A DNA stretch of 52,373 bases, counting the filler, from Squatina squatina (taxonomy: Eukaryota): the NCBI GenBank assembly GCA_031763465.1. It is 3 parts of 3 records of this genome, joined end to end, with 100 filler letters (N's around TTAATTAATTAA, not from the genome) between each part and the next. Parts side by side here need not be neighbours in the genome. Positions count along the whole stretch, not along the records: positions 1 to 18,902 come from JARFOE010295688.1; 2 more parts are not named here. One strand, written 5' to 3'. Shown in pieces: positions 739 to 44,800 of this stretch. The translations under genes and the position numbers were made by a program. Numbering within the stretch: position 1 is the first letter of the stretch; each line of letters starts with the position of its first letter. The notes below the pieces were generated by a model. It did not search any database and was not told the DNA's origin. It was given only the letters and a program-made list of their open reading frames with translations.

Positions 739-799
739 TGAAATGAGACAATATTTGTTTTTGTGTTCAGCAGACTCGTGGAAGCGGATAAACTAGTGA

Positions 800-1820
800 C
801 ATTGAAAAGACAAATTTATAATACCTGAATTGGAAAGAATAAAACAGAGCTCTGGGGGAAAAGCTAGAGATTGGGACCAATTATATATCTCTTTCCAAGA
901 TGGGAGTGATGACCTCATTCTGTTATATATTAGACCATCATTGTACAGGATTCTAATTGAAGTGCGTCTCCTCACCAGGTCAGTGTCTAATAAGACTTGT
1001 TTGGGTTTCAAATCTTGCACTGGATAGAAGTGCAAACATTCAGGTGGTTTTGAGACAGCAGGGGGCCAGGTACCTGTGAGGAGAGAGTCGCAATATTCAG
1101 GGATGAGTTTACCATTTTGACAGGACAGTCGGTAAATGATTTATCATTCTACGAGAAACAACAGGAGCCCTTTAATATTCAGTAATATGTCGGTGTGTTC
1201 AGAGATATGTGGAGTGTTAATATCCTCCAGCAGTGCATCACCATTTACAGGGATTTGGGACTGCTAGAGATGTTACACATTCCTGCAATTCCCAGAATGT
1301 GGCAGTATTTGATGGTGTCCCTGGAAGTGTGACAGAGGAATCCCTCAATTTTTCCCCCCAGGATTCCTCAGGAGGAGATGAAGGATGTATTCCTATATTA
1401 GGCAGTGTCAATGAGAGTGAGTGGGTACATAGAGGGCCTGTCAGGAATGGCACAAATTAAGATTTTGCCCCCATTCCGCCACTGGGGTTACCTGCACATG
1501 GGACAGTGGTGGAATGGGTTTCCAGAAACGTGCCAGTATTTACAGGACTAATCGGAGCTGTGTCACCTGCACACAGGGAGTCCTGAGAAATATATTCAAG
1601 GGTATTCCATCAATCATCAAATATTGCCTGATATGACTGAAACTCAGTCAATAGATGAATGGCGAATCAAGCAGACTGATCATTTATTACAATTGTTTGC
1701 AGGACTGAGTCAATATTTGCAGGCGGGTCCCAGAGAAGTGGATTGTGAGAATAATCTCAGAAGATTCTATCGCATTTTACACCCTCTATGGGGGCAGCGT
1801 GTCAATAGATATAGGTGAAC
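800..1820 (+). mobile_element. Candidate endogenous foamy-like retrovirus gag remnant (stops, frameshifts, probable internal deletion)
   Basis: Four collinear peptide blocks resemble prototype foamy virus Gag: RIKQSSGGKARDWDQLYISFQD (836-901), FRDEFTILTGQSVNDLSFYEKQQEPFNIQ (1096-1182), WVSRNVPVFTG (1515-1547) and CENNLRRFYRILHPLWGQRV (1744-1803). The alignment is by eye. No LTR, PBS or pol is seen; CR1 elements flank both sides. Confidence 0.55.
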
Positions 1821-1994
1821 AAAAGAATGGGCAGTCGATTGCAGGAGGTTGTAGTTAGTGATTCTTCTTTTATTGGGTTATCTGAAAATGTTATTGTCAG
1901 AGGCTCCGCGACTCAGAGACCCGCTGAGAAGGAACATTCCAGATCTACTGTAAAGTGATCCGTGTTTCACTAATGTCACAGGATGCATTGCATA

Positions 1995-3209: not shown

Positions 3210-3950
3210 GATCATCCTTTCAAGGGAACAATTCAATCCATTCCTCAGCTCCTCCCTGAATTTCCTCTGGGCACTGCATCAATGAAGGTGTTCGTGCAGC
3301 ATCTCAGGAGCTGGAGCATGAAGCCAACTTCAGTTCCAAATGTGGACGGAGAAATAGGATATTCCAATTAGCCCAATCATTTCAATATAGAACAGAACAT
3401 AAACACAACACATAACAGTATGAAATGCAGTCCTGTATGTCAGTGGGATTCTCACCACTGCTCCAACCCCAGAGTCTACTACAAGCTCTTCTGGTCACTA
3501 CAATGTGCCTGACCGTTAAAGCATTGGAAAGTAGAATCCAAAGATATTGGACAAATGGCATTAGATATAATGCAGTAATTCAACAACAGACCAGACCAGT
3601 GAACGCAATACACTGAATGTCACTTGGCAAAATCAGGGAATGTTAGAAAGCCAATACTGATTTGATGAGATGAAAGATAAGAAAATATTCCTCGAACCAC
3701 AACTGCTGTTGTCTCTGTGCAATATTTAGATTTTGGCTCTGCCAACAAATAGCCACGACTGGATCAAAAGTGAAAGTGACTGTGAACCAGAAATAACTTT
3801 CTGTGGCAGCACAGAGCAGAATTGTCTGTATATTACAGACTCTTTTGTCCCTCAAAATGAAAATTGTTTCCGGTAACAATAATAATCTGCCTTAATATCA
3901 CATGAATGATAATGACCAGTAGATCCGCCGCTGCCACGGCCACTCGGTAA
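3210..3950 (-). pseudogene. GPR139/GPR142-like class A GPCR pseudogene (main exon, heavily decayed)
   Basis: Minus-strand fragments VAAADLLVIIIHVILRQI, ATESYFWFTVTFTFD..VAICWQ, KYCTET and EVGFMLQLLRCCTNTFI..KFREEL parallel the better-preserved copy at 13250-14147. There are multiple frameshifts and the 5' part is lost next to a Harbinger remnant. Confidence 0.8.
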
Positions 3951-4479: not shown

Positions 4480-7400
4480 TGCTTCTGAAACGAGGCTCTT
4501 GAATCTAAATAAAGGAAACTACAATGGTATGAGATGCGAGGTGGGGATGATAGATTGGGGAACGTTACTTAAAGGGTTGGCTGTGGACAGGAAATGGCAA
4601 ACCTTTACGGAGTGCAATGATGAATACAACAATTATCCATTCCTGTCTGGCATAACAATAAAACAAAATAAAAGGTGGCTCAACCGTGGCTGACAAGGGA
4701 AATTAGGAATAGTATTGGATCCAAGGAGGAGACACATAAATTGGCCAGAAAAAAGCAGCAAAACTGGGGATTGGGAGCAGTTTAGAATTCAGCAAAGGAA
4801 GACAAAGGGATGGATTAAGAAGGTGAATATAGAGTATGAGAGTAAGCGTGCAAGGAGCATAAAAAAATGATTATGAAAGCTTCTCTAGATATGTGAAGGG
4901 AAAAAGATTAGTGAAGACAAATGTCGGTCCCTTACATTCAGAAACGGGGAATTTATAATGGGGAACAAAGAAATGGCAGCCCAATTAAATGCATACTTTT
5001 GTTCTGTCTTCACAAAGGAGGACACAAATAACCTCCGAGAAATATTGGAAAAGCGAGTGAGAGGAAGGAACTGAACGAAATCAGTATTAGAAGGGAAATG
5101 GTGTTCAGCAAATTGATAGGATTTAAGGCTAACAAATCCCCAGGGCCTGAAAATCTCTATCCCAGAGTACTTAAGGAAGTGGCCCTGGAACTAGTCGATG
5201 AATTGCTGGTCATCTTCCAAAATTCGATAAACTCTGGAACAGTTCCAACGGATTGGGGTGTAGCTAATGTAACTCCACTATTTAAAAAAAATAGGTAGAG
5301 AGAAAACAGGGGATTATAGACCAGAAAGGCTGACACTGGTAGTCGAGAAAATGCTAGAGTCCATTATAAAAGATGTGATAGCACTTGAAAAACAATGACA
5401 GGATCGGACACAGTCAACATGGATTTACAAAGGGGAAATCATGCTTGAAATATTAACAGGAATTTTTTGAGGATCCAAGGAGTAGAAGAGATAAAGGAGA
5501 ACCAGTGGATGTGCTATATTTGGACTTTCGGAAGGCTTTCAATAAGGTCCCACATAAGAGATTAGCGTGCAAAAGTAAAGCATATGGTATCGGGGGTAAG
5601 GTACTGAATAGAGAACTGGTTGGCAGACAGGAAACAAAGACTGGGAACAAACTGATCTTTTTCCGAATGGCAGGCAGTGACTACTGGGGCACCGCAGGTA
5701 TCACTGGTAGGACCCCAGCTATACAAAATATGTTTTCATGATTTCGATGAGGGAACTAAATTTAATATCCACAAGTTTGCTGACGACACAATACTGGGTG
5801 GGAGTGTGAGCAGTGAGGAGGATGCAGAGAAGCTCCCGTGTGAATTGGACAGGTTAGAAACATCTAAACGTAGAAAATAGGAGCAGGAATAGGCCATTCG
5901 GCCCTTCGAGCCTGCTCCACCATTCAATATGATCATGGCTGATCATCAATTTCACTGATCTGTTCCTGCTTTCTCCCCATATCGCTTGATCTCTTTAGCC
6001 ATAAGAACTATATCTAACTCCTTCTTGAAGATATTTAATGACTTGGCCTCAACTGCTTTCTGTGGTACAGAATTCTACAGGTCCACCACTCTGGGTGAAG
6101 AAGTTTTTCCTCATCTCAGTCCTCAATGGCTTACTCCGTATCCTTCGGCTTAGACCCCTGGTTCTGGGCTTTCCCACCATCAGGAACATCTTTCTGCATT
6201 TAATTTGTTCATTCCCGTCAGGAATTTATAAGTTTCAATGAGGTCCCCTCTCATTTTTCTAAACTCTAGCAAATAAAAGCCCAATCGTCCCAATCTCTCT
6301 TCATAAGTCAGTCCTGCCCTCCCAGGAATCAGTCTGGTGAACCTTCACTGCACTCCCTCCATGGCAAGAACATCCTTCCTCAGATGAGGAGAACAAAACT
6401 GCACACAGTACTCAAGGTGTGGTCTCACCAACACCCTGTACAATTGCTCCTCTGCTCAAATCTTCTCACTATGAATGCCAACAGACCATTTGCCTTCTTA
6501 ACCCCCTGCTGCACCTGCATGCTTACTTTCAGCTTCTGATGTGCAAAGACACCTATGCCTCGCTGCAGCTCCGCCTATCCGTTAATAATCCAGATAATAA
6601 TCTGCGTTCCTGTTCTTGCAACCAAAGTGGATAACTTCACATTTATTCATGTTATACTGCATCTGCAATGCATTTGCCCACTCAGTCAATCACCCTGAAG
6701 CCTCTCTGCATCCTCCTCACAACTCCCACTCACACCCAGGTTTAAGTCCACAAACTTGGAGATATGACATTTAATTCCCTCATCAAAATCATTAATATAT
6801 ATTGTGAAAAGCTGGGGTCCAAGCACTGAACCCTGCGGTACCACACTAGTCACTTCCTGCCACTTGGAAAAAGACCCATTTATTCCTACTCTTTGTTTCT
6901 TGTCTGCCAACCAGTTCTGTATCCATGTCAGTACCTTACCCCCAATCCCATGTGTTTAATTTTGCACGCCAATCTCTTCTGTGGAACCGTATGGAAAAAC
7001 TTCTGAAAGTCCAAATTTACCACATCCACTGGTTCTCCCTTATCCACTCTACTAGTTACATCCTCAAAAAATTTCAGTAAATTTGTCAACCATGATTTCC
7101 CTTTCATAAATCCAGGCTGAATTTGACCAATCCTGTCACAGCTTTCTAAATGCTTTGCTATTGCATCTTTAATAATGGACTCTAATATTTTCCCCACTAA
7201 TGATATCAGGCTCACTGGTTTATAATTTTGTTTTCTCTCTCCCTCCTTCTTTAAATAGTGAGATTACATTAGCTACCCTCCAATCCATAGGAACTGATCC
7301 AGATTCAAAAGAATGTTGTAAATGACCACCAATGTATGCACTATTTCTAGGGCCACTTCCTTACGTACTCTGGGATGCAGATTATTAGGCCCTGGGGATT

Positions 7401-8460
7401 ATAGGCCTTCAGTCCCATCAATTTCCCTATCACCATTTCCCTCCTAATAATGATTTCTTTCAGTTCCTCCCTCTCAGTAGAACCTAGGTTCCCTAACATT
7501 TCTGGGAGGTTATTCGTGTCCTCCTTTGTGAAGACAGAACCAAAGTATTTGTTGAATTGGTCTGCCATTACATTGTTCCCTATTATAAATTCCACAGTTT
7601 CTGAATGAAAGGTTGAGTGAGTGGGCAAATGCATGGCAGATGTGGATAAATGTGAAGTTATCCAATTTCGTAGCAAAAACTGGAAGGCAGATTATTATCT
7701 GAACAGCGATAGATTGGGAAAGGGGAGGTGCAACGAAACCTGGGTGCCCTTCTGCACCAATCGCTGAAAGTAAGCATGTCGGTGCAGCAGATGGTTAAGA
7801 AGGCAAAATATATGTTGGCCTTCATAATGAGAGGATTTGAGTGCAGGAGCAGAGATGCCCTGCTGCAATGATACCGGGCCTTGATGAGACCACGCCTTGA
7901 GTATTGTGTGCAGTTTTGTTCTCCTTATCTGAGGAAGGATGTTTCTGCTATGGAAGGAGTGCAGCAACGGTTCAGCAGACTGATTCCTGAGATGGCAGCA
8001 CTGACTTATGAAGAGAGATTGGAATGATTATGCATGTATTCGCGAGGATTTAGAAGAATGAAAGTGGATCTGATAGAAACCTACAAGTTTCGAACAGGAC
8101 TAGACAGACTAGCTGCAGGAAGGAATTTACAATGGCGGAGGCGTCCAGAACTAGGGGCCACAATCAAAGGATGCGGGGTAAGCCATTTAGGACTGAGATG
8201 AGGAGGAATTTCTTGACCCAGAGAGTGGTGAACATGTGGAATTCTCGATCACAGCAGGGAGGTGAGGCTAAATCATTAAATATATTCAAGGAGTTAGATC
8301 TAGTTATTTTGGCTAAAGGGATCAAGGGATATGGGAGAAAGCAGGGGCAGGGTAATGAATTTGGATGATCAGCCATGACCATCTTGAATGGCGGAGCAGG
8401 CTCGAAGGGCCGAATGATCTTCTCCTGCTACTATTTTCTATGTTTTAATATTTCTATGAA
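4480..8460 (+). mobile_element. CR1 LINE ORF2 to 3' tail, split by a nested insertion at 5856-7609
   Basis: Motifs KSPGPENLYPRVLKE, DWGVANVTPLFKK, DVLYLDFRKAFNKVPH and KFADDT lead to LDRL at 5855. The frame resumes as (R)LSEWA at 7610 and runs to TRGH..FLTQRVVNMWNS and the 3' tail at about 8400-8460. Confidence 0.9.
5856..7609 (-). mobile_element. 5'-truncated CR1 LINE inserted in reverse orientation into a CR1 of the same family
   Basis: Minus peptides include VPQGSVLGPQLFTIYIND, GFMKGKSWLTNLLKFFEDVT and FGSVFTKED. The 3' tail starts at 5856. AGGTT is duplicated at 5851-5855 and 7610-7614. Confidence 0.9.
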
Positions 8461-13249: not shown

Positions 13250-14147
13250 TTATTTAATACCTTTAACAATTAGCAAAAAGGGATATTTCACCAGATTCTT
13301 CAACTGCTCTCTGAACTTAGTCTGGGTTGCCGCATAAATACACGTGTTTGTGCAGCAACTTAGGAGCTGGAGCATGAATCCGATTTCCATTAAAAAGAGA
13401 GGTGGCATTGCAAGTTGATCTCTGAACACTAATGCTCGGTTCCATACAGAATACAGAATAAACATTGACCATAACAGTATGAAATTACCCGAGATAACAA
13501 GCAGTAAAATGATGGATTTCCTTCGGCTCTCCATCCCTGGGTCTCTGGGAATCTCCCCACTGTTGTGTTTTGAAGCCTTCTGCGTGATCTGTTTGCAACT
13601 AAAATGTGTCTGATGGTTAAAGAATTGAACAGCAGAATCTAAACAAATGGGACACATGGTGTTAGAATATAATGAATGAGTTCTATTGCTGCCCATAGCA
13701 TTGAATCAGTAACACTGCCTTCTATACCACAAAACCAGGGGATATTGCCAAGATTATAGAAACCTGTTAATATAAAATACCAGTTAATGTTCTTTAAACA
13801 ACTCAGTACAGTCACTGTTCCGAGAACCACAGTCGCAGTTTTTGCAGTGCAATATTTAGATTTCAGCTTCTGGCAACTAATAGCCACAAATCGATCAAAG
13901 GTGAAAACAACAGTGAACCAGACAGAGCAGTCTGTGATTGCAAAAAGCAGGACAGCCTGGAGTTTACACATGCAGAAAGTATACACGAGCACAAAACTTT
14001 CTCTAAAGCAAATCGGAATCTGCCTCAGTATCAGGTCGATGATAACGACCAGTAGATCCACCACTGCCATAGCCACCAGGTAGCGAGAGACACATTTGGA
14101 GAGACCACACTTTCTATGAGTCAGGATCAAAATCGTCACTAAGTTAA
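13250..14147 (-). pseudogene. GPR139/GPR142-like class A GPCR pseudogene, main exon (TM1 end to C-terminus)
   Basis: The acceptor ttacag is at 14148-14153. The exon reads VNLVTILIL..CGLSKC..YLVAMAVVDLLVV..TDCSVWFTVVFTFDRFVAISCQKLKSKYCT..LTPCVPFV*ILLFNSLTIRHILVANRSRRRL, then a 1-nt frameshift near 13568, then SGEIPRDPGMESRRKSIILLL..FMLQLLSCCTNTCIY. The in-frame TAG is at 13639-13641. Confidence 0.9.
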
Positions 14148-14469
14148 CTGTAAGGAAGGAAAACAAACAGCGAAACTGTCTGTCAGGCTGGGAGAAAAAG
14201 CAGCTGGCGTGACTTTTATATCTTCATTTTTGCATTCAATAATGAAACTGATTATTGAACCTGTAGCAGAGCTTTCTCCGAGTGGCAGAGTATAAATACA
14301 TGGAACCAGGAGTGGATTAGGAAACAAATAAAAGAACGGGCTCAAATCAAGCATAAGAAATAACAACTTCCTCATAAATATGAAACGTCCCACACTCCAA
14401 ATATTTAAGAGGATATTAACAGACTTCAGGAGGACTTTTATCCATGTGCTGCTGCTCCAAATTTCGAAT

Positions 14470-15969: not shown

Positions 15970-16320
15970 TCTACCTAATAGCAGGATACAGGAAATTACC
16001 AAGGGCACAAGCAGCAGCAATGTTGAGAGAGAAATTACAAAAATACTTATGCAGTGAAGTCTGCCTTTTCCATCTAATAGCTGGCTTCAGCAATTTACCA
16101 GAGACCCCAACAGCAGCAATGAGAGACAAAATTACAACAAGAGTAACAGTGGTTCGGAGGGAAATAGCTGGATCCATAAACTTATCGTGTACAGCAGCAG
16201 CAGGGAGAGGGCAGTAAATAGCAAGAATAGTAATACAATGAAATGATGATGATCGAATTAATTGCTGGATGTAAAGACTCACCAGGAACCCCAACAGCAG
16301 CGAGGAGCGGATAGTAAAAC
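15970..16320 (-). repeat. Four degenerate tandem copies (about 85-100 bp) of the GPCR exon-1 end plus splice donor
   Basis: Minus translations are YYPLLAAVGVP|Ggtgagt, YCPLPAAAVHD, LSLIAAVGVS|Ggtaaat and SLNIAAACAL|Ggtaatt. Each is followed by a CCAGC(A/T)AT-like motif (plus-strand gctggat/gctggct/gcaggat near 16264, 16168, 16080 and 15981). Confidence 0.75.
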
Positions 16321-16571
16321 TTCTGACTAATCAAAAGAGCTAAATATATCTGAATATTTAATTTGAGACTGTGATAGTTTGCAGAAAGCAATTCGAACTC
16401 CCAGCAAAAACTCCTGCCCACTGGTGTAACATCCCAATCTATTGTTCTCAGATTCTGACCCACCGTTGTCACATTCCAATCTGTTGCAACCGGATTCTGC
16501 CCAACTGTTGTTCCCGGATTCTGACCCATTGTTGTATCATTCCAATCTACTGTTCTCAGATTTTGACTCAT
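16283..16571 (-). pseudogene. Exon 1 of the GPCR pseudogene (N-terminal ectodomain and start of TM1)
   Basis: It reads MSQNLRT...QKFYYPLLAAVGVP then G|gtgagt. The phase-1 donor at 16282 joins the 14147 acceptor to give ...GVP-V-NLV. The start codon is uncertain because the frame is open upstream to 16751. Confidence 0.82.
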
Positions 16572-16612
16572 TGTTTCAATATTCCAATCTATTGTTCTCA
16601 GATTCGGACCTA
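16420..16612 (-). repeat. Coding 42-bp minisatellite (about 4.5 copies) encoding GQNLRTIDWNVTT(M/V)
   Basis: The plus-strand unit attccaatctattgttctcagattctgacccaccgttgtcac is repeated, with one in-frame partial unit. Confidence 0.9.
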
Positions 16613-16839
16613 TCCTCTCCCTGCCTCTGATGCCACTGCTCCCTGTAAGTGTCGGAGATGAGGCTCTCGTTGACAGTAGTGAATAGCAGGTTGACAACCA
16701 TCCCTTATTAATTGAAGAGGGACAGTCTCCAGTGATCCAATTAACATCCATGGAGAATGAGATTAATTCCAGTCACCGAACAAACAGATTCAGTTAACCC
16801 TTTTCAAACCAACAATTTTTGATCACAAAAATGTAGAAC

Positions 16840-18902: not shown

Positions 18903-19002
18903 NNNNNNNNNNNNNNNNNNNNNNNNNNNNNNNNNNNNNNNNNNNNTTAATTAATTAANNNNNNNNNNNNNNNNNNNNNNNNNNNNNNNNNNNNNNNNNN
19001 NN
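18903..19002. other. Artificial scaffold linker N44-TTAATTAATTAA-N44
   Basis: A 12-mer with stops in all six frames (18947-18958) sits at the centre of exactly 100 positions. Confidence 0.97.
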
Positions 19003-20505
19003 AAATTCAGGAACATGGATTAAAATTAGTCTTGGTGCTATGGGCAGAGATCTCTTCAGTTAGCATGTTGAGTTCTGATTGCTTCCGAGCAGCTGAAATT
19101 GCACACAATCTCTGAAATCAATGTGTTACAGCAGTAACAATAAGATTACATGCAAGGCATCAATTTTATATTGAAACAGGAATACTTTTTCTTCCTGCCA
19201 TATTTTTTTCTTTTGTTGTACAGTCCTACAATAATAGAGGCAGAGCCAGGTCAAACCTGCCTTTATTTCCATCTTCATTGAAAATCTTAGCTTCCTGGGC
19301 ACTGTAATAATGCCCCAAATAAGAAATCCTTAGTACAATTATCTTTCTCAGCCTGTTTTGTTTGAAAAGGAATGCATGCCTATGGTGCTTATTATCTAAA
19401 TGCTGCCTGAGTGACTATGCAAGTTTAATGGATTACAGTGCGATATGTGTACTGCTACGTGTCTTGTTTTGAAAGATTTTTCAGAGAGTTGTATGACTAC
19501 CTGCATTTCCAGCAGACACTGTATCAGCGGGGCCATAATATATGTTAAGTCTCTTGTGCTGGTAAAAGGCTAAACAAGGAGGAGCACGTAAAGAAAATGC
19601 AAATCATGCAGGTGTCTTTCTGCTGCTGTGTTGCATTAAGAAGGCCTTTTTTTCAGTGCATATGTGAGACTAGGTTTTAGGGATTCATTTGACCAGTGAG
19701 CATGTCTTCAATGATTTGTGATTAGAGCGGTGTAGACTAGTTGGTATGTTTGCGGGGCAGAATGCAGGTCTGACCTTTTGAGTTCTCGTGTGCAGTCTAG
19801 CTGGTGCCCAAAGCTGCTTTTGCACTGCCGTGTTCGCCATCACTGTGCAGAGCTCACGCAGCTGGCTCCCACCCCAACATAAACTTAAAACTAAAGCAAA
19901 ATGCTGCTGAAATCTGAAAATGCTGGAAACTCTCAGCATGTCAGGGGGNNNNNNNNNNNNNNNNNNNNNNNNNNNNNNNNNNNNNNNNNNNNNNNNNNNN
20001 NNNNNNNNNNNNNNNNNNNNNNNNNNNNNNNNNNNNNNNNNNNNNNNNGCATATGTAAAGAAGGACCCTCTTGGCTCCGGGTGCATTTCCTTTCTGCTTG
20101 CTCAGGAGAGCAGGTTAAAATTGCAGATGTTGCAATCATGGCAGCTTCCGTACAGATAAGAGCCAGGTTGATTTTACCTGTGCACCCGCCAGGTTTCTGC
20201 TGAGCGAGTAGGGTTAAAATTGCCCCCGATCTACTGTATTTATTGCATTAAAACCACTAAAATCCAATTTACAAATGATCGGATTTGCTGCCAAGTTGGT
20301 CCATTACATGCTGCACAGTAGGCTCCTCTGGAACCAAGATTTATACATAGTGAACTATTAGCATTAGGCAATAATAAATGGATCCACTTATTTTGTAGTA
20401 TATTATGTAGCAACAAAACTTACATTTTAGATTATTTTTGTAATAATATGAATGTGATCTTGTCATTTTTACTTTTTTAAATTCTTTTTAGATCTGTATA
20501 CAGCC

Positions 20506-22031
20506 ATGAGGCTCAAAATGCAACCAAGCTTTTTAACATGGCGCATACCAATGCTGTGGCTTCTTCTGACTCTTGAGCCTCTCAGCAGTACACAAAGCGA
20601 AGAAGAGCTGGTGGTCACAACCAGACAAGGAAAAGTGAAAGGAACTCCGGTAAACGTCCTTTTGGGATCAGTCACTGCTTTCCTGGGCATACCATATGCA
20701 GAACCGCCCATTGCTGAACTTCGATTTAAGAAACCAGAACCTCGAAGATCCTGGTCTGGACTGTGGAATGCAAACAAATATCCAAACACCTGTTACCAGT
20801 ATATAAACAACTCTTCCATTGGTTTCTCCTGGGAAGAAATGTGGAACCCTAACACTAGGCTTAGTGAGGATTGTCTGTATGTTAACCTGTGGGTTCCATC
20901 ACCAAGACCAAAAAAAGCAGCTGTTATGATATGGATCTTTGGTGGGGGCTTTATGTCTGGCACCTCTTCCCTAGCAGTATATGATGGTAGATATCTAGCT
21001 TACATTGAGAATGTAATTGTAGTTTCCATGAACTACAGATTAGGTGCTTTAGGTTTCTTAGCTTTGCCTGGTAGTCGTGAGGTTCCTGGGAATATGGGAT
21101 TATTTGACCAACATTTAGCACTTGAGTGGGTTCAGGATAATATAGCAGCATTTGGAGGGAATCCCAGAAGTGTGACCTTGTTTGGAGAGAGTGCTGGAGC
21201 AGCTTCAATACATCTTCATATTCTTTCGCCAAAAAACCTTTCTCTCTTTACTAGAGCCATAATGCAAAGTGGCTCCTCCAACGCTCCCTGGTCTGTTATA
21301 CAAGATGCTGAGGCAAAACGTAGGGCTACAGTTTTGGCCAGACGTCTTGAATGTCCTTACAGTGATGATACAGAGCTAGTAAGCTGTCTTCGTGGTAAGC
21401 ATCCCCAAGAAATAGTAGACAAGAGTCTAGGAATCTTAACGGGTAATCTTTTGTCTGGGTGTGTTTTTATACCTGTAGTTGATGGGGATTTTCTCACTGG
21501 CCTGCCTGAAGAATTAATGCAAATAAGAAACTTTAAACAAATTCAAATCTTAGCAGGTGTGAACAAAGATGAGGGGAGCTACTTTTTGGTGTATGAAGCT
21601 CCTGGTTTCAAAAAAGATACCGAAAGTCTCATTACTCGTGAAGAATTCCGACAAGGTGTAAGGATGACTTTTCCTGACGCTGGTGATATAGGAGTAGAGG
21701 CTGTTGTTTTCCAATATACAGATTGGACAGATGAGAACAATGCAACAAAGAATCGTGATGCTTTGGTTGATGTGGCTGGAGATCGCAATTTTATATGTCC
21801 ACTTATGCATTTTGCTAATAAGTTTGCTGAATATGGAAATACTGTCTACGTCTATTTGTTTGACCATCATGCATCCAATGCAGATTGGCCAGCATGGATG
21901 GGCGTTATGCATGGTTATGAGATTGAATTCGTGTTTGGAATACCTCTTGACGGATTGCTCAATTACACTATGGCAGAGCAAACACTCAGCAGAAATATGA
22001 TGCACTACTGGGCAAACTTTGCAAAAACTGG
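20506..22031 (+). CDS. BCHE: Butyrylcholinesterase-like cholinesterase, large first coding exon
   Basis: It has a signal peptide, FLGIPYAEPP, EMWNPN..SEDCLY, the GGGF oxyanion hole, FGESAG (Ser), NKDEG (Glu) and WMGVMHGYEIEFVFG (His). It ends NFAKT-GG|gtaagc. The acyl pocket lacks the AChE phenylalanines, and the gene lies upstream of SLITRK3 as human BCHE does. Confidence 0.9.
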
Positions 22032-22244
22032 GTAAGCCATCAGTCTGCACAAGCTAAATGCACCTTGCTTCATGTAAATACAATGTTGCTTTCATTGTTG
22101 CATTTTCCCTCTTTTGTTATGCCATTAGCCTTGTGCTTTAGTGATCATTTCAGCGTCGATTTGCAACACAGAAGCTTATATGAACTTTATAAAAAATCAG
22201 CTGTGCCTAATACAAACTATTCATTATTCAACCTGCATATAAAA

Positions 22245-22720
22245 TCATAAAGATTTACAGCACAGAAGGAGGCCATTCAGTCCATTATGTCTGTGCTGGC
22301 CAAAAATGAGTTATCCAGCATAATCCCACTTTCCAGCTCTTGGTCCTGTAGGTTACTGCACTTCAAATGCATATCCAAGTACTTTTTTTAAAAATACGAT
22401 GAAGGCTTTTGCCTCTAACACCCTTTCAGGCAGTGCATTCCAGACCCCCACCTCCATCTGGGTGAAAATAAATTCTCCTCAACTCTCCTCTAATCCTTTT
22501 ACCAATTACTTTAAATCTATGCCCCTTGGTTATAGACCTCTCTGTGAAGGGAAATAAGTCCTTCCTATCCACTCTATCTAGGACCCTCATAATTTTATAC
22601 ACCACAATTAAATCTCCCCTCAGCCTCCTCTGTTCCAAAGAAAACAGCCCCAGCCTACCCAATCTTGCTTCATCGCTAAAATTCTGTAGTGCTGGCTACA
22701 TCCTCATAAATCTCCTCTGT
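22245..22720 (-). mobile_element. CR1 LINE 3' end (intronic)
   Basis: Minus peptide RLGLFSLEQRRLRGDLIVVYKIMR..TKGHRFK, with a tail resembling that at 1995-2040. Confidence 0.9.
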
Positions 22721-33330: not shown

Positions 33331-35906
33331 CGATTCCACTGATGGAGGACTCGAACGAGTTAGACGAACCTTGCATGGAACCATGTTACTGTGAGGAAAA
33401 AGAGAGTATTTTGCATATACACTGTGAAAGTAAAGGTTTTACAAATATTAGTCAGATTACCGAGTCATGGAGAAGACCATTTAAACTTTACCTACAAAGA
33501 AACTCTATGAGGAAACTCTATGCTAATGGTTTTCTTTTTTTAACCAACGCAGTATCCATTAACCTTGGAAACAACGCATTGCAGGACATTCAGGCAGGTG
33601 CCTTTAATGGCATGAAACTTCTGAAACGTTTATATTTACACGAAAACAAGCTCGAGGTTTTCCGAAATGACACTTTCTTGGGTTTGGAGAGTTTGGAGTA
33701 CCTACAGACCGACTACAACGTGCTGAAGAGGATTGATGGTGGTGCATTCAGGAACCTCAATAAACTGAAAGTGCTGATTATCAATGATAATCTGATACCC
33801 CTGCTTCCTCTCAATCTCTTCAGGGCCGTTACCTTAACCCACATCGATCTGCGTGGTAATAGGTTAAAGACGTTGCCTTATGCGGGGACGCTGGAATATA
33901 TTGGCAGGAGCCTGATGGAGATCCAACTGGAGGAGAACCCGTGGAACTGTACCTGTGACATTATGCCATTAAAGACTTGGCTAGAAAGCATACCATACAC
34001 GGTTCTTGTAGGGGAAATTACTTGTGAGACTCCATTCCATCTCCATGGCAAGGACTTGAGGGAGATCAGAAGAAGTGAATTGTGTCCAATTCTTTCTAAC
34101 GTGGAGGTGGAAGTCAGCTTGGGGATTCCACAGCTTGCTTCCAGTAATGACAATGCGTGGCCTACCAAGCCTTCCTCTATGTCTTTATCCGTGACTTATA
34201 CGGCTTCTTCGGTTGAATATAAGACATCAGGTAAATTACCAAAATCAACCAAGACTCCGAAGACTTTAAAAGCACAGCCAACTCTACGCAGCGTTTATCC
34301 GGGACAAAATCAGCCCATAGTTGCAGGCTACCAAACCAGGCCGCCCATCCCTATCATTTGCCCCACTGAATGCTCATGTAGCCTACATATAAATGACCTG
34401 GGTTTGACAGTGCAGTGCAAAAATAAAGGGATTCAAAATATGTCTGAACTAATACCAAGGCCGTTGAATGCTAAGAAGTTGTATTTAACCGGGAATCTAA
34501 TTCAGAAAATTTATAGGTCAGATTTCTGGAATTTCTCCAGTTTGGATCTATTGCATTTGGGGACCAACCGTGTATCGTATATACAAGATGGTGCTTTTAT
34601 GAACCTTCCAAATTTAAAAATCCTATATCTGAACAACAACGACATCGAACGTCTCACGCCCGGCATGTTCAGAGGGCTACAAAGTCTGCAATACTTATAT
34701 TTTGAATTCAACATCATAAGAGAAATCAAGCCAGCGGCTTTCAGCCTGATGCCCAATCTTCAACTATTGTTTCTGAATAATAATCTTCTCCGAACTCTAC
34801 CAACCGATGCTTTCGCGGGCACTTCTCTGGCTAGACTGAGCCTGAGGAACAACTACTTTCTGTATCTGCCAGTGAGTGGAGTGCTCGAGCACTTGGACTC
34901 CATTGTGCAGATTGACCTGAACCAGAATCCCTGGGATTGCTCCTGCGATTTGATTGCTCTGAAGCAGTGGGTGGAAAAGATCAGCACTGTTATTATGGTC
35001 GGCGACGTGTTGTGCAAGACGCCCGAATTCCTGAGCGGGACGGATCTGAAGAAGGTGGACTATGAGGTGCTGTGCCCCGAGCTGAAGCATGCCGCCGCCT
35101 CTCCGGCTCTACCTGGCTCTGGAGGGAATGGTAATGTGATATCCACAACCACGGGCTTTGGTTTCTCCTCGCAAGGTGGCGCCATTCCTCTTTCAGTCCT
35201 TATCTTGAGCCTTCTGATCATTTTCATTTCCGCTGTATTTATTGCAGCTGGTCTCTTCGCTTTCGTGCTCAGGAGGCGTAAGAAATCGCCCTTCAGGAGA
35301 AGGCAGGACGTAGACTTGACTGGTATGCAAATGCAGTGCAGGATCTTCGAGGACAGAACTGCCAACTCACCCGAGAAAGCAGCCAGCCACGTCTACGACT
35401 ACATCCCCCATCCCGTCACGCAAATGTGCAACAATCCTATCTATAAACCACGTGAGGGAGAGATGGAGGAGGAATTTTCAGAGACTCAGGAAAATAATAC
35501 TAATTACAAAACTCTGGAGAAAGATAAAGAATGGAAAATGTCACTGTCCAATAGCAACCTTAATACTATAGTTACAATCAATCAGACTAACGATTTTGCC
35601 AATTTTCCCGAAAATGGGGTGATTTACCCCAGTGTGTTGGACAGAGAAAGACCAGCTCACACTGTTGGCCTTGTGGACTGCCTGTATGGCACCGTGCCCA
35701 AGTTAAAAGAGCTGCATGTCCACCCCCCTGGCATGCAATATCCTGACTTACAGCAAGATGCCAGGTTTAAAGAAACGATTCTGTTTGGCTCCTCTGGACG
35801 GGGATATCCTGATCAAACCCAAAGCGAATACCTCGAGTTAAGGGCCAAACTTCAAACTAAGCCAGACTACCTCGAAGTACTAGAGAAGACGACATACCGA
35901 TTTTAG
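33331..35906 (+). CDS. SLITRK3: SLIT and NTRK-like protein 3 (single coding exon; start codon and signal peptide fall in the 51-N gap at 33280-33330)
   Basis: IPLMEDS..DEPCMEPCYCEEKES..HIHC.SKGFTNISQI matches the SLITRK3 N-terminus. It has two LRR blocks with NPW.C.C caps, YQTRPPIPIICP, the TM segment GGAIPLSVLILSLLI, HVYDYIPHPVTQMCNNPIYKPREG and the C-terminus LQTKPDYLEVLEKTTYRF. Confidence 0.97.
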
Positions 35907-38455: not shown

Positions 38456-38555
38456 NNNNNNNNNNNNNNNNNNNNNNNNNNNNNNNNNNNNNNNNNNNNT
38501 TAATTAATTAANNNNNNNNNNNNNNNNNNNNNNNNNNNNNNNNNNNNNNNNNNNN
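38456..38555. other. Artificial scaffold linker N44-TTAATTAATTAA-N44
   Basis: The same 12-mer at 38500-38511 sits within 100 positions. Confidence 0.97.
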
Positions 38556-41110: not shown

Positions 41111-41623
41111 TAGTCATATAGAATCATAGAAATCTACAGCACAGAAAGAGGCCATTTAGNNNNNNNNNNNNNNNNNNNNNNNNNNNNNNNNNNNNNNNNN
41201 NNNNNNNNNNNNNNNNNNNNNNNNNNNNNNNNNNNNNNNNNNNNNNNNNNNNNNNNNNNTGAAGTAATATTTTAATTTGAGTTTTTTCCTAATTAGTTGG
41301 GGTGGAAGTGCGCAAATAAATTTGGTTCACTGCTGATAGCAGAGGGGCAGCCCAGTGTAAACCTGATGGATTGTGAGAAAAAAGGCATGCACTGTTAACT
41401 GTTTTTTTTAACCATCCCTCAATCACGGACAAATCTGAAAAGAATACACACTAGACTGAAGCAAACTATAAATTATGCTCCATTACAAAATAACACCTAC
41501 AAGTATAGTGGATGCTGAAATGATAAGGAGATAATAGCCATTTCTCCCATTTTTTTGGGTGGGTGCATACACATACGTAGTTTACGAATGGCTGTCCAAA
41601 CCCTAAATAAAGATCATTATTAC

Positions 41624-41842
41624 CTGGTAGGTGTTCGTGGCATCTGAACTGGCAGTGGCATCATGTCCCAGTGTGCCCAGCTTCTCTTTCAGTTTGTGGT
41701 GAGAGCGATGCCTGAGGCAGTAGATGACCCCTGATGCAACAAGGACCCCGATGATGCAGATGATGGAGATTATTGTTAAGATAATAAATTTGGTCGAGTC
41801 CTCTTCGTTGGCCCGGAGGGGGAAAGCCCGCAGTTTGCTTTT
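41624..41842 (-). CDS. PTPRN2: Receptor-type tyrosine-protein phosphatase N2 (phogrin/IA-2beta), transmembrane exon
   Basis: A 219-bp phase 0/0 exon: ttcag|[55 protein letters not shown]...DATNTYQ|gtaata. It closely resembles the human PTPRN2 segment EDSTKFI..GVLLASGLIYCLRH..LKEKL..DATAAYQ. Confidence 0.93.
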
Positions 41843-44800
41843 CTGAAGTGGGGGAGGGTGGGGGGGAAGAAGGAGAAGCAGGTTAGAAAATAAATAAAAC
41901 CGCATTACAGGTTATTTTTTTTGGTGTGGGTGTGATTTTATTTTCTGTAAAAGAAGATTGCAGTGGTCATATTCCTGTTTGTTCCTTCCCACTGCGAGAT
42001 CACACAGCAATTCATCCACGTCAACCTTCATCATTAGATGTATTAGTAACAATTTTTTAAAAAACACAAACGAAGTCAAAATTCATGTATTGCAATGCAC
42101 AGAGTAAATAATAAACTGGGAGAACTGGAAGCAATTATTTTGCAGAAAGATCTTGAATTAATAGCATAAACAGCAGAGTGGACAAGAAAGGGAAATTATC
42201 AGGATTTATCAGATAGCCCTTCTGATACTCAATGTCTAGGCTTGTACATGAAGAACGGCTACTTGGATGATCTGTTAGTGCTGGTGTAACTGTACTCTAG
42301 CATCAGTCACCGCCTTTGGGTAAAAGAAAGTGTTAAAAATTAGTTTGAAAAAGCTGATTTGCACCTGCTGCAAGGGACACTGCCGGTGATGCGAGACTCT
42401 TCCCCCTTCCAGGTAATCTCACGGCTGCTGGTGCCAAGTTTCAGAGCTCTGCAGAATCAGCAGTTATATTGAGAATACAGATGTACTGCAGCTGGCAAAA
42501 GTGCAGTTAATACCACCTCCTGAAAGTAGGATTGTTTACAGAAGTGAAATACTGCGGATGCTGGAATCTAGAATACAAACAAAAAATGCTGGAAAAACTC
42601 AGCAGGTCAGGCAGCATCNNNNNNNNNNNNNNNNNNNNNNNNNNNNNNNNNNNNNNGGGTGTCATTCTACCACTTAAAAAAAAATCTTTAGTGTTGGCCA
42701 TTCACTGAATGGTCTGTGAAGCAGAGCTGGCCCTTAAAAGAGGAACGAAAACCTAAAACTTCATTTTACGCTTTTTGCTTTGAGGTTTTTGCATTTTTGC
42801 GAAAGAAAAGACATATATCTTCTAATATGGGTGATTAAAATAAGCAGAAAAAGTTTCTGCTCACAAATTCCTGAAATTTAGAAAGATTTCGGTCCTTCAG
42901 TAGATTCGCCTGGCTGACCTACACTCGTCCGAAACAGCCAAACTTGAAGCTATAAAAGACCTGAATTAGCGCTGTCAATCTTTTCCTTTTGAGCAGCTTT
43001 CACATCATTCTCAATAAAGCTGAATACTTAAAATGTTAGGGGCTTTGAGTGGTGGGTGGGGAGAGAATCCTTTTTTGCGGCAGTTTCAAACGATTTTGCA
43101 TCAAGCGAGCGTGGGGTTTAATTAGATATTCTTACAGAAACCATACAAAGAGAAAGAGATTGTCAAATGCTTTAATTCTGAGCGCACCTTTTTAAAAAAA
43201 GACAACATAAATATATCTGTGTGAACTGGAATAGACAGCAATCCCACTATAAACATCACAGGGAAATTTGTTGATGATTTTTTTTCCTTAGTTATTAGCA
43301 GGCTCTGCTTGCCTTTTAACTAAATACCTGATGCATGAAATGTTCTTCACATCCTGAATGTTCTGTGATTAAAGAATTTCAGCGCAGTGTATAAGAAGTG
43401 ATGGAGAGTGGCGCTTTTAGCTACTGACTCAGTTTATCCTTCGACCTTTTGAAACAATATTAGAAAAATTATTTGATCTCGCGGAGCCATAAAATAACGT
43501 CACTGAATGTACATTGAGATAGGCGTTTTATTTCCTACTTTATTATCTGGTAATATGTATAAATGTTGATGGCAAGAGTTTAAGGATGTTTTATGAATAG
43601 TGCACACTGCAGAGTTCAGCAAGATAGCATTGTATGAAGGATAAAGTGGACTATAAAACGCTGTTTACAACCAGTCTTCAGCTCCTGATGGAATAGTATG
43701 GAGATTAACATAGATTGGACTGAATTTTCAGCCTGAAGAGTTTTCATGGTTTTGGCAAGAACATTTTTATACTCCAACTAAAATATACTTGGAATTATTG
43801 TAAACAATTGTTTCTTATGAATACTTATGTTTGAAACTCAGGGAATTCACACTACTTTCCCTTTGTGATTTGTGGAATAGTATCTCCTGGAAAACTGGGG
43901 CGACTACCTTCTCCAAGGCATGGATTGCACGCTTGATGCTGAACAGTCCAACTAACTGAGTTAAGAGTTAGCTATTAACTTGATCAGGTCTACTAAATTT
44001 AAGGACCTCACCAACCTACCTGTCAATTTTGCCACATCCTTTCAATTCAAATCCAACAATGACCATTTTTTTCTTTAAAATTACATGATTATTTTTTGAA
44101 AAAAAAATCTGTACAAGAGGATATTTAACTGGCATTTGCTGATTAGCTTTTTATTTAATGGTGGTCAAGACTCAGTGCGGTTCTCCATCTCTGGAGTCGG
44201 AAGCTGAATTNNNNNNNNNNNNNNNNNNNNNNNNNNNNNNNNNNNNNNNNNNNNNNNNNNNNNNNNNNNNNNNNNNNNNNNNNNNNNNNNNNNNNNNNNN
44301 NNNNNNNNNNNNNNNNNNNNNNNNNNNNNNNNNNNNNNNNNNNNNNNNNNNNNNNNNNNNNNNNNNNNNNNNNNNNNNNNNNNNNNNNNNNNNNNNNNNN
44401 NNNNNNNNNNNNNNNNNNNNNNNNNNNNNNNNNNNNNNNNNNNNNNNNNNNNNNNNNNNNNNNNNNNNNNNNNNNNNNNNNNNNNNNNNNNNNNNNNNNN
44501 NNNNNNNNNNNNNNNNNNNNNNNNNNNNNNNNNNNNNNNNNNNNNNNNNNNNNNNNNNNNNNNNNNNNNNNNNNNNNNNNNNNNNNNNNNNNNNNNNNNN
44601 NNNNNNNNNNNNNNNNNNNNNNNNNNNNNNNNNNNNNNNNNNNNNNNNNNNNNNNNNNNNNNNNNNNNNNNNNNNNNNNNNNNNNNNNNNNNNNNNNNNN
44701 NNNNNNNNNNNNNNNNNNNNNNNNNNNNNNNNNNNNNNNNNNNNNNNNNNNNNNNNNNNNNNNNNNNNNNNNNNNNNNNNNNNNNNNNNNNNNNNNNNNN

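Follow-up and report, generated by a model that had tools for sequence, protein, structure and literature searches.

A LINE-flanked island of probably decayed coding DNA in Squatina squatina, possibly a gag-type mobile-element remnant, and its faint likeness to foamy virus Gag

Does a short island between two LINEs in the genome of Squatina squatina preserve the Gag gene of an ancient foamy virus? A first-pass annotation of the locus had proposed this from four peptide blocks, read as the remains of an old, deeply branching foamy-like provirus that had lost part of its capsid domain. The whole stretch of DNA that we analysed, called the window here, comprises 52,373 nt of assembly GCA_031763465.1. 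It consists of joined pieces with N gaps, so its long-range neighbourhood is uncertain; 44-N runs surround a 12-base spacer at 18903-19002 and 38456-38555 (TTAATTAATTAA at the first), and there are many 100-N gaps besides. The features of the locus are as follows.

1-739, + strand: 3' part of a LINE, presumably CR1/L2-type, running past the left end of the window
740-1990, + strand: non-LINE island, single-copy within the window
836-901, + strand: block 1, CTRS-like region
1096-1182, + strand: block 2
1223-1571, + strand: coding-like stretch in frame 0 with one stop at 1458-1460 (codon periodicity, ORF list)
1246-1263, + strand: exact YxxLGL-type motif in frame 1
1512-1577, + strand: block 3, best single match to the foamy capsid N-lobe
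1573-1812, + strand: coding-like open stretch in frame 1, past a frame break near 1571-1580 (codon periodicity, ORF list)
1705-1803, + strand: block 4 with its upstream extension, weakly resembling the last capsid helix
1992-2764, - strand: 3' part of the right-hand LINE, whose tail points at the island, with an open frame at 2240-2764

Results bore out the claim that about 1 kb of non-LINE sequence lies between two LINEs. The left LINE (1-737) has 79% copies at 7725-8458 and 5855-6571 and ends in an 8-nt tandem tail at 710-739, the right one (1992-2480) has a 71% copy at 22239-22720, all within the window, and the two 3' ends are oriented tail-to-tail with the island between them. We take CR1/L2 to be the family name of both flanking elements, and we assume that this LINE type and the GPCR fragments in the window fit a shark origin. 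Two long inverted LINE copies, about 80% alike, were also seen at 4948-6650 and 6690-8460, with an RT fragment at 6931-7263. Neither blastn nor tblastx detected a second copy of the island (740-1990) within the window. No LTR, primer-binding site (PBS), pol or env was found there, the LINEs truncating the island on both sides; the PBS search gave no match within three mismatches, and none of the retroviral ORFs compared with the window matched it (0/161 and 0/306 at E 0.05 and 0.01). A tRNA search found none, and Rfam returned a single chance match (E 0.29).

Codon periodicity was the firmest result of the analysis. Codon models of retroviral ORFs traced one + strand path, in frame 0 through 1223-1571 and then in frame 1 to 1755-1812, which scored 13-21 bits where shuffles gave about 6; under five of the seven models no shuffle reached the score of the island (0/150 and 0/150). 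The lentivirus model was weaker (3/300), as was that of rhabdovirus L (14/300), which followed a different path. The signal was strand-specific, the minus strand scoring 6.5-8.3 bits. With the six models of retroviral origin, 2-5 of 138 other windows did as well as the island, a genuine cholinesterase exon foremost, and under a pooled codon model only the windows of that exon outscored the island, all windows outside known exons being lower. This marks the signal as real; since host exons also score high, the codon models cannot tell viral from host origin. Amino-acid composition stood above shuffles (1-6/200 and 0-9/200) and was modestly protein-like, but this test stayed in frame 1 throughout and conflicts with the codon models on 1223-1571. 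Three helices were predicted for 1573-1812 with low to moderate confidence. From the codon periodicity we infer that the island probably once coded for protein and has since decayed.

The four peptides themselves are present on the + strand, in the claimed order and in three different frames (start modulo 3 of 2, 1, 0 and 1 for blocks 1 to 4, block 4 proper being 1744-1803). Their frames fared unevenly: those of blocks 3 and 4 were picked independently by codon periodicity, but those of blocks 1 and 2 were weakly favoured or ambiguous. As references we used natural foamy virus loci found by a primer-binding-site motif, with foamy Gag in 16 of 32 loci, and a 21-sequence foamy Gag profile made from aligned loci and five of ten further matches, two loci being confirmed by Pfam. 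The reference peptides given in the annotation agree with two of these foamy Gag loci, L027 and L017, and L027 numbering is consistent with the motif positions in the available text of PMC5102385 and PMC3649970. The 18-mer of that primer-binding site also occurs in a metagenome viral contig (L014, 4001-5136), ahead of a 343-residue ORF without a Pfam family; this contig is probably unrelated.

Compared with L027, three of the claimed peptide matches could not be told from chance. Block 1 is identical at 3/22 positions (BLOSUM 13), a score reached by 45 of 100 shuffled islands. Block 2 (2/29 ungapped) and block 4 (4/20 ungapped) each need a one-residue gap, and all 100 shuffles reached their ungapped scores; with its extension, block 4 has 7/25 identities with L027 and 9/25 with L007. 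Block 3 stood out, with 7/22 identities, BLOSUM 39, no shuffle of 100 reaching its score and a pairwise E of 0.006 for its 41-residue ORF alone against L027, but when ungapped segments from the six-frame translation of the window were ranked against the 21-sequence profile, it came only 7th (17.5 bits) and extended block 4 (1705-1779, 15.6 bits) came 39th. The spacing, described as similar to that of foamy Gag, holds for blocks 1-2-3 but fails between blocks 3 and 4: the distance W327-Y464 is 84 codons in the island versus 136-137 in all 21 foamy Gags, leaving the capsid core about 52 codons short. A foamy reading is therefore compatible only with a deletion.

The residues that define foamy Gag were also sparse. 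Blocks 1, 3 and 4 keep 4 of 12 invariant residues (1/4, 2/4 and 1/4), while block 2 lies in a part of foamy Gag with no invariant column and another 16 invariants fall in the weak or missing part; in five additional foamy Gags 38-43 of 43 are retained. According to the consulted text of PMC3649970, the CTRS of foamy Gag contains G43WWG46 and Arg50. GWWG is absent from all + frames, and neither W45 nor R50 is kept in register, although decay could have erased the motif. A PGQA motif and a YxxLGL that closes the capsid domain are given as foamy Gag features in the text seen of PMC5102385. PGQA is absent from all + frames, its place lying within the postulated deletion; at the YxxLGL position only the Tyr and first Leu are found in register, the exact motif at 1246-1263 being upstream of block 3 and hence out of foamy order. 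P340 is not kept. Capsid helix 1 has no counterpart (289/300 shuffles score as high), and helices 2-4 are not significant (50/300). No Cys-His box occurs in any + frame, with about 180 nt left before the LINE, and over that short remainder after block 4 Arg and Gly make up 17% versus 34% in foamy Gag. Two N-terminal segments scored better (9/300 each), and a G-P pair lies 55 codons past block 1 compared with 44-53 in foamy Gag, the anchors of both comparisons having been chosen by eye. The island should not be classed as a spumavirus Gag: none of the defining motifs examined held in register.

Profile searches gave a similar picture. Neither hmmsearch nor tblastn with foamy Gag gave a noteworthy match in the island, and the Gag_spuma-type Pfam families PF03276, PF20672 and PF20673 had no significant match among 11 island queries. 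By hhalign, blocks 3 and 4 were the best matches in their frames, yet with E 0.12 and 0.18; the frame of block 1 gave an unrelated match (E 0.43), and a read-through of the island with X gave P 0.26, 0.09 and 0.21. A frameshift-aware chain with free jumps reached 26.0 bits, which two of 200 shuffles and none of the 138 other windows equalled. It used blocks 1, 3 and 4, a different motif at 1395-1454 taking the place of block 2. Other jump settings gave 2/200 shuffles (1/138 windows), a looser jump cost 33/200 (9/138), and the chain without jumps 20/200 shuffles and 10/138 windows. Under stricter nulls, 12/500 shuffles and 3/200 block-permuted profiles reached the score. With frames fixed and X at the breaks, the counts were 3/300 and 1/300 for residue shuffles and 9/150 and 4/150 for block-order shuffles, and 45/300 without jumps.

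When 41 viral profile pieces were compared by the chained score with free jumps, foamy Gag led (nominal p 0.007 and 0.004); its closest non-foamy competitor had p 0.030 and 0.013, and corrected over 38 non-foamy pieces the foamy p was about 0.15-0.27. Of the non-foamy retroviral gag regions, 2/8 scored at least 26 bits on the foamy profile. A ranking of 192 single ORFs, noisy at 12 shuffles each, placed five foamy Gags within the top 17, and a non-foamy ORF tied for the top z. The chained foamy ranking is thus a suggestive, post hoc hint from sequence comparison, with a family-wise p near 0.2 that becomes weaker when the free choice of family is counted. The foamy positive control of 476 bits was a virus already in the profile, and sensitivity for an old divergent copy is uncalibrated.

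Database and structure searches yielded no significant match to spumavirus Gag, the check that the first-pass annotation had set for itself, though such tests are weak on a single decayed sequence. Pfam, which also served as the check for a Ty3/Gypsy, BEL or lokiretrovirus Gag, returned no family for nine island queries and two more, with filters that drop matches weaker than about E 0.1; NCBIfam and PHROGs returned nothing for the island. Searched with frame 1 only, PDB sequences contained no retroviral chain (best E 0.049, an unrelated protein), a word search of 5.8 billion proteins confirmed 0/255 and 0/1033 candidates, and phmmer against 1.84 billion representatives gave none at E 0.001. 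Contig scans with the 88-residue ORF confirmed 0/9 and 0/381 candidates. Foamy RT scans recovered 17 complete foamy genomes and 0/141 metagenome candidates, with no fish foamy-like Gag among them. Single-sequence fold models (pLDDT 33.8 and 63.9) were too weak for a fold test and gave no informative match; Foldseek with these low-confidence models found no match at E 0.001. A wide structural search matched generic helical bundles (best Z 8.0), with no capsid among the 50 matches listed, and is evidence neither way.

Other identities suggested by eye did not hold. A 71-fragment profile of rhabdovirus (Mononegavirales) L around the GHP motif matched five residues at 1474-1488 with a negative bit score. 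A 22-sequence lentivirus and betaretrovirus profile of the orthoretroviral capsid was at or below shuffle level (275-277/300 as high in two settings), and gamma, delta and L231 gag ORFs were not significant (z -0.4 for L231, which we take to be the snakehead retrovirus). Over 1660-1779, which includes the residues of block 4, the major homology region of lentivirus L170 gave 10/41 identities (E 0.068), whereas the same piece gave a poorer E of 0.43 against foamy L027; the strict orthoretroviral motif pattern is absent from the island. An internal repeat of 70-77 codons, visible by eye with units near 1020, 1236 and 1466, was matched by 35/200, 14/60 and 10-58/200 shuffles, and its score of 39 equals that of block 3. 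Two viral contigs matching the frame-0 ORF proved to be a phage protein sharing an 8-residue seed. As the by-eye matches to the L motif, the lentiviral stretch and the repeat all failed, such matches evidently arise easily in the island.

Published foamy-like elements frame what a shark Gag might look like. Amphibian and fish elements (NviFLERV, AciFLERV, CmiFLERV) are described in the available parts of PMC5512871, which report pol alone as detected in Callorhinchus milii. In its supplement, as far as seen, the newt Gag shows by eye regions corresponding to block 3 and to the last helix of the capsid, at the full capsid spacing, unlike the island, and the first part of the cichlid Gag looks unlike the island. 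The text consulted of PMC10699275 lists 293 catshark ERV-Spuma.0-Sca elements without a Gag conserved domain, and that of PMC5210030 finds in teleost foamy-like Gag neither detectable homology to foamy Gag nor a CTRS. The coelacanth element carries gag, pol and env in the part seen of PMC3386198. Lokiretrovirus Gag was recognised only by structure, and sharks go unmentioned in the searched text of PMC7947760. Our search, which lay outside subscription journals and the supplements of PMC10699275, found no published shark Gag with a spumavirus N-terminal domain.

We favour, with a probability of about 45%, the reading that the island is a dead remnant of a mobile-element coding gene, most likely gag-type, from an LTR retroelement or endogenous retrovirus. 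The lineage of that element is likely absent from the searched databases, and its likeness to foamy Gag is probably accidental or else too distant to be demonstrated. The faint matches that are present fall on capsid helices, both the foamy ones and the lentiviral major-homology-like one over block 4. Against this gag-type reading stand the ordinary count of stops and frame breaks (126-178/300 trinucleotide shuffles do as well), the disagreement of composition on 1223-1571, the null orthoretroviral capsid profile and a window without LTR, PBS, pol or env. The same ordinary count would suit unique DNA that never coded, with peptide likenesses and periodicity due to chance, and equally striking by-eye matches (rhabdovirus L, lentiviral capsid, the repeat at 35/200) failed; but the periodicity beats 300/300 shuffles under five models on one strand, and the pooled codon model places the island above all windows outside known exons, so that we regard a never-coding origin as quite unlikely. 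A decayed host pseudogene or exon fragment, too short and broken to resemble anything searched, also seems improbable. Host exons score even above the island, there is a pyrimidine tract with a terminal AG at about 753-773, and the neighbourhood contains broken GPCR fragments (about 3240-3950), yet no Pfam, PDB or representative match was obtained for any piece searched, and a codon model built from two host exons in the window, a tiny training set, gave no signal (83/200 shuffles). That no family or relative was found would suit a rapidly evolving orphan more than a host gene.

A foamy-like provirus on a deep branch, retaining the N-terminal domain of Gag, the linker, and the N-lobe and last helix of the capsid after in-frame deletion of most of the C-lobe, is in our judgement doubtful. 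The non-LINE island, its probable coding nature and the first place of foamy Gag among 41 pieces agree with this claim of the earlier annotation; the want of a significant match, motifs, PBS, pol or env does not. In its favour, the best hhalign matches in two frames coincide exactly with blocks 3 and 4, which sit in codon-model frames, the likenesses occur in order (second N-terminal strand, first conserved capsid tryptophan region, last capsid helix), the G-P spacing and the two N-terminal segments with their by-eye anchors point the same way, and foamy-like elements are reported from shark genomes in the text seen of PMC5512871 and PMC10699275. Set against these are the significance of the chain, lost without free jumps or at the looser jump cost, the non-foamy regions and ORF that do as well, a corrected p for a family picked by eye from far more families, the few invariants kept, the missing helix 1 and the differing teleost Gag (PMC5210030, as above). 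The fit of block 3 is also uneven, best to ape-type viruses (42-43) and lower to feline, bovine and equine ones (26-34). It is unlikely that the island preserves the Gag of a foamy-like retrovirus of cartilaginous fishes which, unlike the teleost elements, kept a tetrapod-type N-terminal domain and capsid. If true, this would place spumavirus Gag architecture in a shark lineage, by descent from the jawed-vertebrate base or by cross-class transmission, and the unique fold of the spumavirus N-terminal domain could be better dated with the help of a shark Gag that has it. For now, the locus counts as an unremarkable relic of a mobile element, of a sort common in LINE-rich vertebrate genomes.

Under the gag-type remnant reading, a mobile element would have entered the germ line, and LINE insertions or deletions on both sides would have removed its neighbours. 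The remnant would then have accumulated stops and frame breaks without selection and would yield no product today.

Several other features were seen in the window. Short GPCR-like pieces were noted by eye near 16000-16330, besides related rhodopsin-family GPCR genes with broken frames (7tm_1, 69-79% DNA matches) at 13250-14223 (-) and about 3240-3950 (-). An imperfect 42-nt-type repeat at 16417-16610 lies in a coding-like open frame without a Pfam match (16182-16772, minus), and an exon-like piece at 41603-41911 (-) weakly matches CD34/podocalyxin (E 6e-4, below the curated cut-off). At 33333-35906 (+) lies a single-exon gene for a leucine-rich-repeat membrane protein (LRR_8), which we take to be SLITRK-like. 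The cholinesterase exon at 20458-22035 (+) is large and intact (PF00135, E 8e-155; about 665-693 bits to acetyl- and butyrylcholinesterase chains) and is presumably BCHE, from its synteny with that downstream gene.
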